Part shown: positions 4,276 through 33,771 of the stretch, piece by piece
Layout: each line of letters opens with the position of its first letter
How positions within the stretch are numbered: the stretch's first letter is position 1
IMG/VR virus record: IMGVR_UViG_3300024493_000235
Location: 192,001-256,000 of that record
Length of the DNA stretch: 64,000 bases
Source of the DNA: a virus
Taxonomy: Duplodnaviria; Caudoviricetes
Strand: one strand, 5' to 3'
Notes under the pieces: generated by a model
The model's input: the letters and a program-made list of their open reading frames with translations, nothing else
What the model was told of the DNA's origin: nothing
Database searches by the model: none
Translations under genes and position numbers: made by a program

Positions 4276-4364
4276 GTATATATCATATAACTGTGTAGAA
4301 ATATTAACGGTTAAATACGCCCAGTTATGGGCGTATTTTTTATTTTATTGAAAAGGAGTAAATT

Positions 4365-6509: not shown

Positions 6510-8753
6510 ATGGAACCTATGTCTATAGAGAAAATTCAGGACGAATTTTGCGACATGTATGACACTTTGTGTCCAAGAGCAAGACAAGTAATGACAGAAA
6601 AATTTAAAGATTTCAGTGTTGATATAGAATCTTTTTTAATTCCATACAGTAGCGACAGGATAGAAAAACATTTCGAAGATCCTGATACGGAATCTACAGG
6701 AACAGTTTCAGCATTGAAATTTTTGTGTATACCTTTATCGATTTTTCATTCTATACAGCATCTAAATATCAATGAAGATCAGTTCAGAATATCTTTGAAT
6801 ACGCGGTTTTTAAATCCTGTATCAGAAGCATTATCAGCCGCAATGGAAGAGAAAAAGAAACCGTGGTTTAAACTTTTTATCCAGTTTGAAAAAGCTGACA
6901 ATACAACAATCGAAAGCTATAACGCATACATTTTGTTTTCAGGCGTTGTTCAAGGAGAATCAGGATATCCGTATGATCTTAACATCAATTCTGTTTATCT
7001 TGAAGACAAAGATGTAGAAAAGGAAGACGCTGTTGTAAAGGATATCGAAAATCAAACAGGAAAAGACGATAATACCGTTATACAAGATGATACGAAAAAA
7101 GATGCCAAAAAGAAGGATATTTCTGAAGAAGGTGCATTTCTTAGAGTATCAATTCCTGATGGTCTTAAAACTGCAAACGATATGATTTCATATCTTAAAA
7201 GAGCAGGTATTGAGAAAACTATAAAACTGCGTCTTAATGAGCTTAACGCTAATGGATATGAACCACTTTCATTTTCCAAATATCACGAAATGAGACGGAA
7301 TGGAACCTCTTTTGATAAAGACTTCAAAAATGATATGTACATCACATATTCAAATGGAAAAGCGGATCTTAAGTCTACAAAAGAATATCAAATCATGGAA
7401 CTTGCAGGAACGTGTGTTGTATTCGGATTATATAATTCGATATCGGCAGTTCCTGATAAAAAATATCCATTTTCTTTAAATAAAAATGTCCGTTATGCCA
7501 ATAAAGGATATAAGTTAAAGAGAGTATGGATAGCCGTCTATAATCCGCGTACTAAAAACGTAATTCATAAACCTATTGCAAAATCATCAAAGATTTTTGG
7601 TGTAAAAGTTGAGGGCTTTTCGGTTGCACTTGAGGGGCTTTTCTCCGATAATAGCGATTGGGGACTATCTTGTGATCCACATAGTATCCAAAAAAATAAA
7701 TATACATACCTTATAAACGACAAAACTGGAAAGGTTGATATCGGTATGGCATATCCTCCTGGAGATGAATGGTATCAATTTTTAACACCGTTTCAATCTC
7801 GCAATATTGGAAATAATATACGTGACATATATTACAAATTTCAATCGATGGACAATGGCGGAGATTGGGATTTGTATACATACAACGATTACAAAAGTGC
7901 GGATGGATCTAAGGCATTACTGGAAGTTCTTAAAAACTTTAAGTGTTATAAATTTTCCGAGAGGTTTACAGATAATGCAAATCGTTCATATGACGGTTTT
8001 AATATCTTTAAACTTGGAGGATGGATTTACGGATGCACAATCGTCGCTAATATCCTCACAATTAGGCCCACAGGATGCACCGAAAGTGAGTATCATTATG
8101 CACATCTTTCTGATATATACTTATTCATGTATAACAGCGCCACACATAAAATAGCAACTCCACTTTTGGCATCGGAAGGATTATTGTGGCTAACCCAACT
8201 TGGTAAACCTTCAGCATCGTTTAGAACTCAAGTTTTTGGTGATAAAAAGCCTGTAAAAGGTATTATCACAAAAGCGAATATGCAGGAGATACCAAATGAT
8301 TCTACAATACTGGATAAGACCTTTATTGCGGGAAAACCTGTCGTACCTCTTGTCGGAAAGCTCGCACTTTCTTTAAAGGAAGTTATAGCGAATCCAACTT
8401 CGAGAATATTAAAACCTTCAACTACAATTCCAGATACAACTTCTGAAGGAACGCAAATAGATTTGACAGTTGCAAAAGAAAAACTTATCAAACTTTTCGC
8501 ACAAGAGCATATGTCAATGTCTGTAACAACAAGTTTTAATCATGTGAACAAATCATTCATGTTTGCCGACGGGTTTATTGGTAAACCGAAGGGATCCGTT
8601 TCTTTTGAAGGCGCAAAAAATGAAAACATAGGAGTGAAAATTCACAGACTTCAAGATACGTGTGATACTATCGTAGAGGAGTCAGGATCATTAAAAGCTC
8701 TTACTGTCAGAATGTCGGGTGATAAAGTATTCATAACAGGAACTCTTGCGTAA
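6510..8753 (+). CDS. putative internal head protein with multiple protease-processing sites
   Basis: late promoter; repeated (S/A/T)-x-E motifs AME, TIE-S, SEE-G, ALE-G, ASE-G, TSE-G, SFE-G; adjacent to the portal gene. Confidence 0.5.
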   Translation: MEPMSIEKIQDEFCDMYDTLCPRARQVMTEKFKDFSVDIESFLIPYSSDRIEKHFEDPDTESTGTVSALKFLCIPLSIFHSIQHLNINEDQFRISLNTRFLNPVSEALSAAMEEKKKPWFKLFIQFEKADNTTIESYNAYILFSGVVQGESGYPYDLNINSVYLEDKDVEKEDAVVKDIENQTGKDDNTVIQDDTKKDAKKKDISEEGAFLRVSIPDGLKTANDMISYLKRAGIEKTIKLRLNELNANGYEPLSFSKYHEMRRNGTSFDKDFKNDMYITYSNGKADLKSTKEYQIMELAGTCVVFGLYNSISAVPDKKYPFSLNKNVRYANKGYKLKRVWIAVYNPRTKNVIHKPIAKSSKIFGVKVEGFSVALEGLFSDNSDWGLSCDPHSIQKNKYTYLINDKTGKVDIGMAYPPGDEWYQFLTPFQSRNIGNNIRDIYYKFQSMDNGGDWDLYTYNDYKSADGSKALLEVLKNFKCYKFSERFTDNANRSYDGFNIFKLGGWIYGCTIVANILTIRPTGCTESEYHYAHLSDIYLFMYNSATHKIATPLLASEGLLWLTQLGKPSASFRTQVFGDKKPVKGIITKANMQEIPNDSTILDKTFIAGKPVVPLVGKLALSLKEVIANPTSRILKPSTTIPDTTSEGTQIDLTVAKEKLIKLFAQEHMSMSVTTSFNHVNKSFMFADGFIGKPKGSVSFEGAKNENIGVKIHRLQDTCDTIVEESGSLKALTVRMSGDKVFITGTLA

Positions 8754-20517: not shown

Positions 20518-20754
20518 CTAATGCTTTGCGTTTTTAATGGCGTCAGCTTGCTCCTTAATAATCTGGATACGAGCTTCAGTTAAGCTCGCTAATGTGGGAA
20601 GATCCATTTCATCTAGTTCTGTGTGCGTGAATTTTCCATCAAATAGCTGTAAGAGTTGGAGAGTATATTTTGAACTTTCGATAGCAATATCTGTTTTTAT
20701 ATACTCCCCATCCCTTGCAACTAGAACCCCTTTCGGCTTTTGGTTTCGAAAAAA
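20518..20754 (-). CDS. -1 frameshift extension of the tail/baseplate assembly chaperone (76 aa)
   Basis: slippery T-TTT-TTC at 20754-20748; -1 frame is open to TAG at 20518, closed by TAA four codons upstream, and has no SD-linked start. Confidence 0.7.
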   Translation of the reverse strand, partial: FFRNQKPKGVLVARDGEYIKTDIAIESSKYTLQLLQLFDGKFTHTELDEMDLPTLASLTEARIQIIKEQADAIKNAKH

Positions 20755-22643
20755 AGCGTCCGTGTATTAATGTCCCTCTGGTTAATAATACGGCCGCAAT
20801 GCTTACATTTAACGCGCGGTATTTGATATGCAACAGAGAACCGCGTTATGTAGTTTATAATCTCCTTCTCAAACTGTTTCTTTTCATCAGGAGAGATATC
20901 GGCGATGGCTTTATCGATAGCCTCTACGCGCGTATCGAGGAAGTAGTTTGCCTCACCGGTTTGATTATAGTGTTTGATATCGATAATACCGACACCACGA
21001 ATATATCCGGCATAAATCATGTCATGATAGAAGTCGTTTACAACTTCTTCTTTTTTGCCCTTAAACGAATTCTCAAGGAACTCAAAGATACTCGGAGTGC
21101 GAGCCCTGAAGAAGCGACGGCCTTTCTCAATAAAGATGTCCAAGGCCGACCATCTTTGTGTCAACGCTTGAATCCTCTTTGGATCCCATGCCATCGGATT
21201 GTTGAGTATATCAGAAATTTGTTGTTGTGCGATACTGCCAGGAGGAATACATGCCAAAGTGTTTGTATCTATTTGTACGGATATATTCTTTCCGCAGAAG
21301 TTACAATCAAATGTAAAAGGTGTTTTTGAAGGATATGTGGCGTGATACAGGCCAAACATGAATGTCTGAAGGTCCGAATATGCTGTTGCATTCATCCATT
21401 GCTGGAATGTAAGGGCACCGCAAGAGAACTCGGAAAGTTTTGAATATATGGCGTTACATATGGCCATTTCGTACGCATATGTATTATCGTTTCCTTCTCT
21501 TCGTCCAAATGTACGAAGTTCACGAGAATTGAACGGTTTTACCATACACGAATATCCTGATTGAACAGCGACAATCTGTACTTTCCTCAATCCGTCAAGA
21601 ATGTTTTGTTCAAGTTCAACTTGTCTCATCATATAATCAGGAATTGTTGAAGCTTCGACAACTGTCCGCTTTGAGATATCGATTTCTTTGCCTTGCAGTT
21701 TCTTAATTTCTGCAGTGCTCGCTTCAAATATCTTATAGTGTGTTGTCGTATAATCATTCAATTCGATTACTTGGACATCATTAAGCTGTTTTGAAGTTGT
21801 GAGATATCCGTTGTTGTCTTTTTCCAACTCTTCAAGTTGTCTCTTGTTTGCTTCTTCTTCCGTGATACTTTCAACGTATGTGCCTGGTTCAGCTTTATCA
21901 TTCACATTTTCAAGCGGAATATCTTTATTGGCATCGGCTTTTTTGACTTCTGTATCTTCTACAGTTTGAGTCATTATATTATCAGAGATATTTGTTTCTC
22001 GCCATGAAAGTTCAACATTTTGTGCCGCTTCTTGTGTATTTGCTTGTGGAGCTTCGGCTGTTGGCGGATTTTCAGAAACTGGCGGTGCTGGGGGTGGAGG
22101 CGTGTCAGTAACTGGTTGCGATTCTATCGGAGGTGTATTGGGTTTCGTTGTTGCATCGTCTACATTTTGTGGAGGTACAGAAGTATCACTTTCTTCACCC
22201 GGTATAAATGATTGCACAACACCTTTTTCATTTTCAGGAATAACCTCCGCATCCTCCGTAGTTGTAAACTGATCCGGTTTCTCTATTACAGTTGGCTGTT
22301 TTGCCGTCTGTAAAGCATCGTTGATTGTATCAAGTGAATGTGATAAACCGTTAGGCGCTTCGACCTTCGGAATTGGAACGGCATCATGTGCCACTTCAGG
22401 AGGTGCTGAACGCACTTCTTCCTTTGGCTTTCCGTCAGATACAGGCGGCGGATCCCTTTGAGCTTCGGGATCTTCAAGTCTGTGTCCGACTTCATTTTGT
22501 ACGATTTGTTGTGGGCGATCCTGATTTTTTTCATTCAGTTTTTGAAGTTCTTGCTGCTTTCTTTCTTCCGCTGAAATGGATCCAGGTATATTTACACCAG
22601 AATCAAAATTAACCATCGGCGGGATTCCATTATTCTCAGTCAT
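20721..22643 (-). CDS. tail/baseplate-hub assembly chaperone (T4 gp26-like C-terminal domain) with low-complexity N-terminus
   Basis: two CxxC knuckles (CNFC, CKHC); ends LFF at a slippery site; same operon as the gp25-like gene. Confidence 0.6.
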   Translation of the reverse strand: MTENNGIPPMVNFDSGVNIPGSISAEERKQQELQKLNEKNQDRPQQIVQNEVGHRLEDPEAQRDPPPVSDGKPKEEVRSAPPEVAHDAVPIPKVEAPNGLSHSLDTINDALQTAKQPTVIEKPDQFTTTEDAEVIPENEKGVVQSFIPGEESDTSVPPQNVDDATTKPNTPPIESQPVTDTPPPPAPPVSENPPTAEAPQANTQEAAQNVELSWRETNISDNIMTQTVEDTEVKKADANKDIPLENVNDKAEPGTYVESITEEEANKRQLEELEKDNNGYLTTSKQLNDVQVIELNDYTTTHYKIFEASTAEIKKLQGKEIDISKRTVVEASTIPDYMMRQVELEQNILDGLRKVQIVAVQSGYSCMVKPFNSRELRTFGRREGNDNTYAYEMAICNAIYSKLSEFSCGALTFQQWMNATAYSDLQTFMFGLYHATYPSKTPFTFDCNFCGKNISVQIDTNTLACIPPGSIAQQQISDILNNPMAWDPKRIQALTQRWSALDIFIEKGRRFFRARTPSIFEFLENSFKGKKEEVVNDFYHDMIYAGYIRGVGIIDIKHYNQTGEANYFLDTRVEAIDKAIADISPDEKKQFEKEIINYITRFSVAYQIPRVKCKHCGRIINQRDINTRTLFFETKSRKGF

Positions 22644-24670: not shown

Positions 24671-25348
24671 ATGCTGACAGTAATAACAAAAAATCTCTTT
24701 AAAAAGCCAAAAAAAATAACACTTGCAAGAGCCATTCAAATAATTGAAATGGAAGACCCGTATATCACAACAGATTGGCATCTTGGAAAGTTTATTAACA
24801 AACAACAGACAGAAGCTTCTTATCAGGAATATATCGAAAAGACAAAGAAAATGATTGACAGACTTCAAAAAGCTGTAAAACCTGGAAAACCGATGTTGTG
24901 TCTCGGAGATATTACAGAAGAAGAGATGTATGACGAAGATTTGATTAAATGGCTTTACAACACCGTTGTTACGATACATGGAAGTCCAAAAATTTTAATA
25001 AAAGGAAACAACGATATTTTCGATGATGAATTTTATTATAAGCTCGGATTTGAATATGTGACAAAAAGAAATATCGTATCCGATAAACTTCGAATAGTTT
25101 TTTCTCATGAGCCTGTGTCTATAATAGACATGAAACTCTCCGAAAAGGATTGGCTTAATTTGCACGGACACAGTCACGGATCCGGTAAATTATACAACAT
25201 GCAACCAGGGGATGCTAATTGTCATTTGGATGCTTTTCCGGATTACAATTGGCAAGGCGTTCAAAAACTCTCGTACTATCTTAGCATGTTTCGCGCACAT
25301 CCTGAAAAGTATAAGTGCGACGTTATTTATAAATACGGGTGGAATTAA
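24671..25348 (+). CDS. calcineurin-like metallophosphoesterase
   Basis: TDWH, LGD, KGNND, SHEP, HGHSH motifs. Confidence 0.85.
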   Translation: MLTVITKNLFKKPKKITLARAIQIIEMEDPYITTDWHLGKFINKQQTEASYQEYIEKTKKMIDRLQKAVKPGKPMLCLGDITEEEMYDEDLIKWLYNTVVTIHGSPKILIKGNNDIFDDEFYYKLGFEYVTKRNIVSDKLRIVFSHEPVSIIDMKLSEKDWLNLHGHSHGSGKLYNMQPGDANCHLDAFPDYNWQGVQKLSYYLSMFRAHPEKYKCDVIYKYGWN

Positions 25349-25359
25349 AGGAGACACAC

Positions 25360-26523
25360 ATGAAAAGCTTGGATGATTATATTCCAAAAATCCCTATGGG
25401 TCTTGATGACAACGTTATTGATGTAGAAGACAATATTTCATACGAGATTGTCAACGCCCTTTCTGAATTACATTGTACAACATCGGATTTGTTACAAACA
25501 GAATCCGAACTGGTTTTAAGATATATTTCAGACGAATATGGTATATCGTTTGAAAATGTCGATGCGGATATCGGCATACAAATAGGGATAAAGCCTTCAA
25601 GAGATCCGCATACAGGAACACCGAATGTCCTTGATGTCAAAATCAATTCAAGGGTCGGATTCTTTGAGTCTTTGGCAAAAAAGATGCGGGATTTGGCGCT
25701 ACGAGTTGCAACCGCTATTCGTAACTTTTTTGTATCAATCCATCATTTTTTTCAATCCAAAATTAGCAAAGTGGACAATATGCTTTTACATGCTAATTTT
25801 TCTATCGTTGATAAATATTACAGCGATACATCAAAATCTTGTAAGATAAAACTTACAAAGTATATGATAAATGATCCTATTGCTGAATACAAAAAAGATC
25901 AAGACGTATTGCGTCTTGCAGTTCCAAGATTAAAAGATGCAATTATTACCCTTGTTGATCATATCGAAAATCCTATTACACTGCAAGAAAAAACTGGAAG
26001 TAAAAGTGATATGTACGTCACATACCAAAGAGACAGGGATGAAATCCAAACTCTATTTGATGAAATCTTTGGAAAGCTTGCAGGGCCTCACGTTAATCTC
26101 GAAATGATTCATGAAATGAATATCGCACGTGTTATTCGGCTTAAATACTTTGGAGATAAGAAAACCTCTGATATATTTGAAGTTCGAGATGTTATTCCAA
26201 ATAAAGAAGTATTTGATACCATAACTTCTGATAATGCGTATCATTCATTTAAGAATTTATTCAAACAATCCGATGAATGTCTTGAAATCGCATTGAAAGT
26301 CGCTAACAGGTTTAACAAAAGCCTCAGGATGATGTATAATTCTCCTTCGACTGTATATACAGAAATACAAGGAGTTATACTTAAATTTCGAGGTCTTCTT
26401 ACAGCTTTATTGTACACGAATATCGCATATTGGGAATTATATTTTTCAATACGACAGAATGCTTTGGCAGCCCTTCGTGCAATCATAAGAGACGATGTTG
26501 AAAAACAAGTTTCAAACAAATAA
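25360..26523 (+). CDS. putative internal head/virion protein
   Basis: acidic N-terminus with SFE/QTE motifs followed by an amphipathic helix (FFESLAKKM...IRNFF), a layout typical of processed head proteins of these phages. Confidence 0.5.
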   Translation: MKSLDDYIPKIPMGLDDNVIDVEDNISYEIVNALSELHCTTSDLLQTESELVLRYISDEYGISFENVDADIGIQIGIKPSRDPHTGTPNVLDVKINSRVGFFESLAKKMRDLALRVATAIRNFFVSIHHFFQSKISKVDNMLLHANFSIVDKYYSDTSKSCKIKLTKYMINDPIAEYKKDQDVLRLAVPRLKDAIITLVDHIENPITLQEKTGSKSDMYVTYQRDRDEIQTLFDEIFGKLAGPHVNLEMIHEMNIARVIRLKYFGDKKTSDIFEVRDVIPNKEVFDTITSDNAYHSFKNLFKQSDECLEIALKVANRFNKSLRMMYNSPSTVYTEIQGVILKFRGLLTALLYTNIAYWELYFSIRQNALAALRAIIRDDVEKQVSNK

Positions 26524-26536
26524 AGACAAAGAAAAT

Positions 26537-26567
26537 AATGCAGGGTGGCTAACAGCCACCCTGCATT
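26537..26567. terminator. hairpin terminator
   Basis: aatgcagggtggct-aac-agccaccctgcatt. Confidence 0.7.
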
Positions 26568-26645
26568 AAAGAGGTGATAATCTCTCCATATTATATCTCC
26601 CCAGGCCCAACCAACACATATGATTTAGGAGAGTCTATATATGGC

Positions 26646-27089
26646 AAAAATAAAAGCGGCAGGGGCAATCTGGCCCCTGCCGCCCGGCGGATCTGCAGCC
26701 CGATTCGGAATATAAATCCCGGACCGGTTTTCTTTAGTCTGCTAGATTGCGCCACTCTGAACCGCCGCGATTAAGCGGCAGTTAATAAAAATGACATGCA
26801 GGGCTTAGCATTGGCATGGCGTACCACATTATAATAGAGGCTTGCCGCCGCGGGAACAAGCCCGTGGCGGTGCATACTATAATGCGGGTTTTTAATCAGC
26901 GCCGGTTAGACGGGGTAACGGTTTTATCCATAATCCGCGGTAGTCGCCTTTGCATTTATCGCCCTACTGGGATGCCTTTTCCCGGATATTCTTTGGGAAG
27001 CGCGGCAGCTTTCCGCGCGACCTTTATCCCGGATCGCCGTTGCTAGCAAACGACAAGGCATTTTACATGGAACATGTCATCTTCACTAC
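26646..27089 (-). ncRNA. unclassified large structured non-coding RNA (~440 nt)
   Basis: about 54% GC (225/420 over 26641-27060) in an AT-rich genome; early promoter at 27094-27103; nested long-range stems; 11-bp terminator plus U tract at 26646-26683; no credible ORF. Confidence 0.8.
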
Positions 27090-27130
27090 ATAGATGATAT
27101 ATACGTAAAAACATTTTTGTTTCACGTATA

Positions 27131-27565
27131 TTATCCTGAAGCGTAACCGTTATTGAAAAACCAATTTGATATTGTACAAGCTATGATTGGACTTGTTTCA
27201 TGGTTTATAAAGTTTACAATAATCGGTGTACACCTTGGAACAATCGGATGCTCGATTTTCTTCGATTCATAAATGTGGATACGCATAGATTCATGCACGA
27301 TTTTACTCGGCGTTGTAAGCTGTATCAAGACTGTACAACCTATAAGTCTTGATTTGTCAAGATCACTTATTTCAGGTTTCATGATCTTTTTTGTCACGAC
27401 TCTTGTTTCATTCGAGTATCTTGTCATTGCGTATATAGTTGTTTCTCCCATTTGAAAAGCTTCGTTTGGGATATTAGTAATACGATCCGCCAAGTGTTTG
27501 ACTGGATCCGGCTTATAAAAGTCGTGACTTGTAAGAATTTTGCATTGTGTCATTATTGGGTTCAT
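27131..27565 (-). CDS. hypothetical protein
   Basis: 144 aa; coupled to the upstream gene. Confidence 0.55.
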   Translation of the reverse strand: MNPIMTQCKILTSHDFYKPDPVKHLADRITNIPNEAFQMGETTIYAMTRYSNETRVVTKKIMKPEISDLDKSRLIGCTVLIQLTTPSKIVHESMRIHIYESKKIEHPIVPRCTPIIVNFINHETSPIIACTISNWFFNNGYASG

Positions 27566-31743: not shown

Positions 31744-33771
31744 TCAGTCTTTTAGAAGAGCTCCGCCTACCTTAAACAGGCAATTAAGCATTTTCCTATT
31801 GATACTTTTTCTTTCAACTGGGGTGTATACAATGTTAAAAGGATCATAGGCTTGTATAATTTGTGACACAAAAGCTTCTCTATTTTTAGCCGATGTAGAA
31901 TAAGCGGATAAAAATAGTGCTACGCTTTCGGGATCACACATCATACACAACACCATATTTTCTTGCTCTCCTGTTCGTATTGGTGTGTTGCTATACGGAA
32001 TTCCGTACTTTTTATATTTGATGCTTTTGGACGGATGCCCCAAAGTACTTTGCATTCCAAGACCCCTAGCCGAGTATTTAGAACCCGGTGTTTGTTTAAG
32101 AAGCATAAGATACTTCTTTCCCATGGTAAGAGGCCTTATGATATCTTTTCCGCCGTATTTAAATCTGTACCTGGGGTACCTGTATTTTGCATATAATGCG
32201 CGTAGTTCATCAAAAGTACAGTTGTCCCAAAACGGAGGTTGATGGATTTTTAATCCTTCTGTGAGAATTTCGTTGTACAATATTTGTTTATAATTTTCGT
32301 CACAGCTTTGATAGAATTGATTTAAATCCGCCGCTTGTTTGGGATTCACATCGTTAAGAAAATTTAAAAGGACAGGAAAGCCTACGGCATATGGAATATT
32401 GTGAGCTGCTAATTCTCGGCAGATATTATCGGCTATGAATGTTAAAGATGTTTCTGTCCATTGTCCAACATTTAATCTTCCAAATACACCTTGTCCCGAT
32501 AAAACACAATCAGCATGTATGCCGTATTGGTTTTCGGGCATTTGAGCTTTTGGTGTGATTGTTCCTATAACGCCCTTCTCACCAAAACGTCCTGTGACTT
32601 TGTAGCCTTTGCCAGCATGTTTGATATCAAGAATCGTGAAAATAACAGACATATTTTCGAACTTAGAAGTTCCATTTACAATTGTTTTTCCAGATACCAA
32701 ATCTTCTGCTCTGTGATATATATGAAGAAGTCTGTCCGAAACTTTTCCAGGATTGTGCAATATTAACTTCCCTAAAGTTTTCTTTAAGGTTGTATAGTAT
32801 TCCTGCTGCTCATTATAATAATATAAGAGCTGTGCGTAAACAGGGTTTTTGTTTATCTCTTCGGGACTCCGATTACAGAATATATCAATGCCGATTACCT
32901 GTCCACTCGTGTAGAAGGCATCGTCCTCGTGATAGTGTACATTACGGAGGTTCCCGTCTTTGAGATTAAACAATATCGATTTATTCGATATTCTTCTTTT
33001 AGCACATAAAACACGAAGTTTTATCTCTTCCCCTATATCAGGGAATGATTTGTATACGGTATCGTTACCATATAGATTCAGTAAAATCTCGTTGATGTTC
33101 AGCGTCATCTCGATGGAATGGATCATAGCGTACTCGAACTGCTTAGCGCATTCATCGCTCATCCACACCGAATCCTCGGTAACTTGAGGGCAACTGAGAT
33201 ATACCACATTAACGTTCCTCCCGTATCGCCAATTCATGGCATCGTCGAATGCGGTGCTCTTATATAAAACCTCCCCTTGTCCGATTGTCGATCCCGGCAC
33301 CTTGGAATCGATTACGGAGTTATTATTGAGATACCCGTACGATTCTGTAAGGGTTTCTCCAAATGATCTTTTAACAATATCAATCATCCCATTTTGGTCT
33401 TCTAATATAAGATAATATTGAAGGTCTGGATGCGTTTTATAACGTGAAATTTTATTAATGACTTTCCACATTCTATCTGATGTGTATTTGGAATTAGAAA
33501 AACGTGCTATTTCTTTTTCATACCCAGTGTACACTTGTGGCACCTGGGGATTTAATAACATAAGTGCTTGTGGTAATTGTGATAAAAACATCTGTTCCCG
33601 GGGACTTGAAAGTAAATTAGCCAGTGTTAAGAGTGAACTTCCTAAAAATGTGTCTTTATGATCGAATGCTTGATTATAGCGTTCAAGCATTTGTTTTGAT
33701 ATGAGCGATTTAACGACTTTGATCTCTTGCGAACTTTGTTTTACGACCGTTGTTTTAGATTTTTCCGACAA
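31744..33771 (-). CDS. multisubunit RNA polymerase beta subunit, C-terminal fragment (probably non-virion RNAP)
   Basis: R.QM..SQ..QA, GRN+.V.Y, EDS, GYK+TGRFGEKGVI (GDK..GRHGNKGV equivalent), GR.NVGQ..E, KYSAR, RTGEQE; TTG start with GGAGGAG SD; early promoter upstream. Confidence 0.9.
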   Translation of the reverse strand: MSEKSKTTVVKQSSQEIKVVKSLISKQMLERYNQAFDHKDTFLGSSLLTLANLLSSPREQMFLSQLPQALMLLNPQVPQVYTGYEKEIARFSNSKYTSDRMWKVINKISRYKTHPDLQYYLILEDQNGMIDIVKRSFGETLTESYGYLNNNSVIDSKVPGSTIGQGEVLYKSTAFDDAMNWRYGRNVNVVYLSCPQVTEDSVWMSDECAKQFEYAMIHSIEMTLNINEILLNLYGNDTVYKSFPDIGEEIKLRVLCAKRRISNKSILFNLKDGNLRNVHYHEDDAFYTSGQVIGIDIFCNRSPEEINKNPVYAQLLYYYNEQQEYYTTLKKTLGKLILHNPGKVSDRLLHIYHRAEDLVSGKTIVNGTSKFENMSVIFTILDIKHAGKGYKVTGRFGEKGVIGTITPKAQMPENQYGIHADCVLSGQGVFGRLNVGQWTETSLTFIADNICRELAAHNIPYAVGFPVLLNFLNDVNPKQAADLNQFYQSCDENYKQILYNEILTEGLKIHQPPFWDNCTFDELRALYAKYRYPRYRFKYGGKDIIRPLTMGKKYLMLLKQTPGSKYSARGLGMQSTLGHPSKSIKYKKYGIPYSNTPIRTGEQENMVLCMMCDPESVALFLSAYSTSAKNREAFVSQIIQAYDPFNIVYTPVERKSINRKMLNCLFKVGGALLKD

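Follow-up and report, generated by a model that had tools for sequence, protein, structure and literature searches.

A GC-rich, ORF-free island at positions 26646-27087 (minus strand) of the window, the 64,000-nt stretch of phage DNA analyzed here, is confirmed as a real feature, and it probably represents an early-expressed gene for a structured non-coding RNA that was acquired as a moron. The window corresponds to bases 192001-256000 of a 268,442-bp IMG/VR virus record, which is approximately 91% complete and has an overall GC content of 36.8%. By sequence comparison, the source is an uncultured AR9/PBS1-like jumbo phage, since its RNA polymerase (RNAP) beta fragment (31744-33771, minus strand) shares 35% identity with the non-virion RNAP subunit of the Bacillus phages AR9 and PBS1. 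The RNAP beta relatives of the phage show identities of 74%, 66%, and 66%, followed by 49-61%, and searches for related phages in collections of viral contigs and genome contigs gave only 25-28% relatives, or none. The assembly GCA_001577415.1 contains two different jumbo-phage RNAP-beta contigs, LSQA01000004.1 and LSQA01000017.1 (loci L002 and L029).

The island had been described as approximately 54% GC within AT-rich DNA; we measured approximately 52% GC for 26646-27087 compared to 37% for the genome. The GC fraction is 0.50-0.52 over 26600-27099 and 0.30-0.40 on either side, and the gap at 26524-27130 is the GC-richest of the 23 ORF-free gaps of at least 250 bp in the whole genome (0.48 vs. 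0.415 or less). All six frames of the island are closed by 5-8 stops each. No Pfam signal was detected in the island ORFs or read-through frames, none of these ORFs is present among 15 billion predicted proteins, and the sole matches of the 76-aa ORF in a set of 1.84 billion proteins were two long repetitive proteins. A decayed gene was rejected, as no protein trace was found in any frame. A small protein or a type I toxin-antitoxin pair, encoded for example by the plus-strand 24-codon ORF at 26641-26715 or the minus-strand 45-aa ORF at 26924-27061, is extremely improbable. An AGGAGAG sequence does lie 7 nt 5' of the ATG of the plus-strand ORF, which is antisense to the terminator T1, but the plus strand is devoid of a promoter motif and the peptide is not hydrophobic, while the minus-strand ORFs have no Shine-Dalgarno sequence (SD); there was no family match, and no island ORF is called in public data. 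This candidate was rejected on the combination of the missing Pfam signal and the lack of island ORFs among predicted proteins. The genes immediately neighboring the RNA do not belong to any Pfam family. A 20-nt direct repeat (80% identical, 26493-26512 and 27148-27167, 655 bp apart) has one copy in the 3' end of each flanking gene and is perhaps due to chance.

The promoter previously proposed at 27103-27094 belongs to the phage's own early class and has the layout of promoters used by the AR9 virion RNAP. The window holds 17 copies of its motif, TATATATMAT, compared to 1.5 expected, and the genome 66, nearly all of them located 10-30 nt 5' of an SD and a start codon. In AR9, early promoters have the form AAATATATATTAT-N6-G+1 and are read by the injected virion RNAP (PMC5312081). 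According to this rule, transcription is predicted to start at A27087/G27086, where the closing stem described below begins, and the predicted RNA begins 6 nt past TATATATCAT. Early-class promoters followed by hairpin leaders instead of an immediate SD are also found at window positions 4277 and 61844 (plus strand), and others with hairpin leaders and without an immediate SD at genome positions 25914, 87275, 88561, and 151859. At the opposite end of the island, the terminator with a U tract was found again, with a stem of 13 bp instead of the 11 bp reported before. Both this terminator, T1 (26685-26654), and a second one, T2 (26568-26536), are predicted to be functional on the minus strand only. 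The two tandem terminators, and the position of the island on the same strand directly 3' of the 144-aa gene, would also fit a reading in which the island forms an extended, structured 3' end to the early operon upstream, stabilizing its mRNA or insulating convergent transcription. However, the island has a full promoter of its own, and a single hairpin in a 35-41-bp gap suffices in the relatives, making this explanation highly improbable. The features of the locus are listed in Table 1.

Table 1. Features of the candidate RNA gene and its surroundings (window coordinates)
Feature	Position	Strand	Evidence
Convergent flank, 394-aa gene	25339..26523	+	Orthologue in sister phage, E 3e-74
Second terminator T2, probably corresponding to the one hairpin of the relatives	26536..26568	-	Terminator prediction; relatives' gaps
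Spacer, 77 bp, part of the extra DNA	26569..26645	.	Sequence and relatives' loci
Intrinsic terminator T1 with U tract	26646..26685	-	13-bp hairpin 26685-26654
Predicted non-coding transcript, ~442 nt	26646..27087	-	Closed frames, no Pfam signal, fold z -4.6/-5.3
Long irregular hairpin	26686..26753	-	p 0.89-0.99
Hairpin ACUGCCGC-UUAAUC-GCGGCGGU	26761..26782	-	p 0.99
5' multibranch domain with a 15-bp closing stem (27088-27074/26797-26783)	26783..27088	-	p 0.93; inverted repeat I2
Subdomain 2, GUAGGGC/GCCCUGC around 13-bp arm and GC-rich cap	26798..26967	-	MFE fold; model R1 matches itself only
Subdomain 1, three-way, loop U-GCUAGC palindrome	26972..27061	-	MFE fold; model R2 matches itself only
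Early-class promoter motif TATATATCAT, start predicted at A27087/G27086	27094..27103	-	Motif overrepresentation, AR9 early consensus
Upstream flank, 144-aa gene	27131..27565	-	Orthologue in sister phage, E 2e-24

The predicted transcript folds far better than expected from its composition. Its minimum free energy (MFE) is -181.3 kcal/mol, compared to -148.6 ± 7.1 kcal/mol for shuffled sequences (z -4.6), with no shuffle equally good, and a second test with 30 shuffles gave a z of -5.3. In control folds of 16 other GC-rich islands, 30 of 32 z values fell between -0.2 and -3.9, and the other two were -5.0 and -5.7; the MFE of the RNA is the lowest among 34 same-length folds from the GC-rich parts of the genome. 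The two outlying control values, -5.7 and -5.0 (30 shuffles), come from GC-rich stretches under ORFs at genome positions 20576-21000 (minus strand) and 161751-162175 (plus strand), respectively. Most helices of the predicted fold have p>0.85, and the MFE fold reproduces the helices of the preliminary description at the same coordinates. These include AUGCCUU/AAGGCAU, GCGCGG/CCGCGC, GUAGGGC/GCCCUGC, the 13-bp arm CCGCAUUAUAGUA/UAUUAUAAUGUGG, CCGCC-CGGG/CCCG-GGCGG, ACUGCCGC/GCGGCGGU, and the long irregular hairpin after the domain (26753-26686), while UGUCGUU/ACGGCG appears as GUCGUU/AACGGC. The stem closing the domain, reported as 12 bp (27083-27072/26799-26788), is present but extends to 15 bp in the register given in Table 1; the CCGGGAUA/UAUCCGGG helix consists of 3 and 5 bp flanking a G.G mismatch, and the long-range GGCG/UACC pairings face competing alternatives. 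The predicted fold contains no GNRA or UNCG loops and no G+C-containing loop-loop pseudoknot between unpaired segments. A GCGGAUU/GGUCCG pseudoknot was rejected, as each strand is already part of stable helices, and a palindromic loop such as the single one present, GCUAGC, can be expected by chance.

The earlier argument that G-U pairs favor the minus strand did not hold, with 15 such pairs in the MFE fold of each strand, and the plus strand, too, gives a good fold (z -4.1 to -4.35). We assign the RNA to the minus strand because of the promoter, the terminators, an energy 8.5 kcal/mol lower (-180.3 vs. -171.8 kcal/mol), and an excess of A among the unpaired nucleotides (44% A vs. 11% G; p=0.003 for A against U) that is seen on this strand only.

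Comparison with the Rfam 15 covariance models gave no match to ROOL, GOLLD, OLE, raiA, HEARO, 6S, pRNA, ribozymes, CRISPR repeats or any other family, with nothing beyond terminator-level noise inside the RNA at E<=10; across the window a single tRNA-Cys was found, and in the rest of the genome nothing. This result, and the failure of ARAGORN to find a tmRNA, agree with the reported lack of hallmarks of tmRNA, RNase P, SRP, and group I/II introns. No similarity to the RNA was found by blastn among GenBank phages and plasmids, and exact-word scans of viral, genome, and metagenome contig collections revealed no homologue: the matches in viral contigs (L020-L023, L053) are due to chance, as is a 25/26 match within a coding GC-rich metagenome contig (L027). 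Searches of the phage's own genome by nhmmer and blastn recovered the RNA itself only, as a single copy. Models of subdomain 2 (R1) and subdomain 1 (R2) likewise matched only themselves across this genome, 12 loci of relatives, three IMG/VR jumbo phages, AR9, and RaK2. As no homologue was found, the fold has no covariation support and there is no sign of purifying selection. The proposal of a new phage-encoded large RNA is upheld with respect to a minus-strand unit that is self-contained, without coding capacity, strongly folded, equipped with an early-class promoter and an intrinsic terminator, and outside all Rfam families; the proposed roles as ribozyme, scaffold, or decoy are guesses. A retron RNA or a TnpB-IscB omega RNA was rejected, as the 91%-complete record has no RVT_1 or TnpB domain. 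Another ORF-free stretch of approximately 430 nt, termed RNA-1, is located 2.6 kb before the window (genome 188958-189390, plus strand; L018:13458-13890); it has a 30-bp closing stem, an MFE of -159 kcal/mol, and 39% GC, without a TATATATMAT promoter. A two-member family with RNA-1 is unsupported, as nhmmer, R1, and R2 all miss this stretch.

In the relatives' loci L002, L003/L004, and L005, the gene order is shared: RNAP beta, a paralog array, a ~135-aa gene, and a convergent ~380-aa gene. The last two genes, to which both flanking genes of the RNA are orthologous (E 2e-24 and E 3e-74 in a sister phage), are separated by only 35-41 bp with one terminator hairpin. The closest relatives, at 66-74% RNAP beta identity, thus lack the unit and keep both flanks. 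The RNAP-beta identities group the studied phage with P0002, and P0003 with P0004; given this grouping and the short gaps in the relatives, a single moron-like gain in the studied lineage, between convergent genes that are adjacent in relatives, is the most parsimonious explanation. Among more distant relatives the gene orders differ, and their 22-kb loci contain no island comparable to this one. The suggested tie to the adjacent paralog array finds no support in the nearer relatives, which keep the array together with both flanks and have no RNA, so the array appears independent of it. In the relative L029 (RNAP beta 55% identical), we observed a 417-bp ORF-free island (L029:4726-5141) with a GC fraction of ~0.5, a z of -6.2, and two terminator-like hairpins, which gave no Rfam match at E<=0.3 and no match to R1 or R2.

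A moron is defined by its own promoter, its own terminator, and a deviant composition. The RNA unit is inserted between genes adjacent in relatives, and its sequence predicts a promoter and terminator of its own and deviates in composition. Restriction to the studied lineage, the lack of a homologue, and the deviant composition could also mark a neutral passenger, that is, a foreign or rearranged GC-rich fragment between convergent genes, functionless and transcribed from a captured promoter; two other stretches reach a similar z, and absence from relatives fits dispensable DNA too. We consider this unlikely, as a complete early-class promoter sits precisely in front of the closing stem and a strong terminator concludes the island, no protein trace exists in any frame, the MFE is extreme, the loops are A-rich, and the genomes of the relatives are tightly packed. 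It is very unlikely that the island acts as a DNA-level or co-transcriptional cis element, such as an origin at which a structured early transcript provides the primer (as with ColE1 RNA II or T4 R-loop origins) or a packaging or recombination site. An early promoter does fire into a hairpin-dense non-coding stretch where gene orientation switches, but the island has no iterons or direct repeats, the cumulative GC skew has no extreme at the locus, the relatives have nothing here, and a strong terminator ends the transcript.

Taken as a whole, the explanation we favor, a stand-alone structured RNA gene gained in a moron-like manner and acting as a protein-binding RNA, stands at slightly below an even chance. 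The extra DNA that would have entered the lineage between the two convergent genes measures approximately 560-600 bp and comprises promoter, RNA, terminator, and spacer. The injected virion RNAP would initiate at the predicted start, producing the RNA within minutes of the onset of infection. The 5'-most 14-15 nt of the RNA would pair with nt ~291-305, closing a multibranch domain of ~300 nt, followed by two hairpins and then the terminator. The RNA may serve as a stable, trans-acting decoy or scaffold binding a protein factor of the host or a competitor, in takeover or counter-defence. This function is a guess that we hold to be somewhat unlikely, and is based on the immediate-early and accessory character of the RNA and on its stable helices with A-rich loops. 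It is rather unlikely that the RNA founds a new class of large phage RNAs, immediate-early and horizontally acquired, that neutralize a host defence or takeover target or self-assemble like ROOL and GOLLD; a single orphan sequence is too little yet to name a class. Large structured phage RNAs are few and functionally unexplained, and its character as an accessory early unit makes this one a candidate for an RNA factor in takeover or counter-defence. Its clean architecture, with a predicted virion-polymerase promoter and with a defined 5' end (within the closing stem) and 3' end, and the existence of natural relatives without it should make the RNA easy to synthesize, probe, and compare.

Among known systems, ROOL, GOLLD, and OLE (RF03087, RF01998, RF01071; PMC12286853) are likewise large (hundreds of nt), multibranched, and non-coding, and often reside in phages or prophages as GC-rich islands in AT-rich DNA, whereas the RNA studied here is shorter, a single orphan sequence, and without a covariance-model match at E<=10. 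The jumbo-phage RNAs of the RaK2/121Q type (~450-650 nt) resemble it in size, in their GC-raised, ORF-free island, and in having their own promoter and terminator, but occur in several diverged copies per genome, in contrast to the single copy here. An nhmmer profile of the RaK2 copies (NC_019526.1) did not match the RNA in the studied genome (best E 0.18, elsewhere), nor did R1 match RaK2. In NC_019526.1, copies of a ~700-nt non-coding element are located at 191307-191999, 279666-280345, and 7119-7456; two are 85% identical, and one is partial and diverged. The phi29 pRNA (RF00044) belongs to another phage group and gave no model match, and the studied RNA is 2.5 times longer; the likeness lies in a structured, protein-binding RNA of a Bacillus-type phage made from an early promoter, properties that are at most predicted for the studied RNA. 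The closest parallel in arrangement is with phage morons, which are also extra units with their own promoter and terminator and a deviant composition, inserted between genes adjacent in relatives; morons carry a protein gene, whereas the cargo here would be an RNA.
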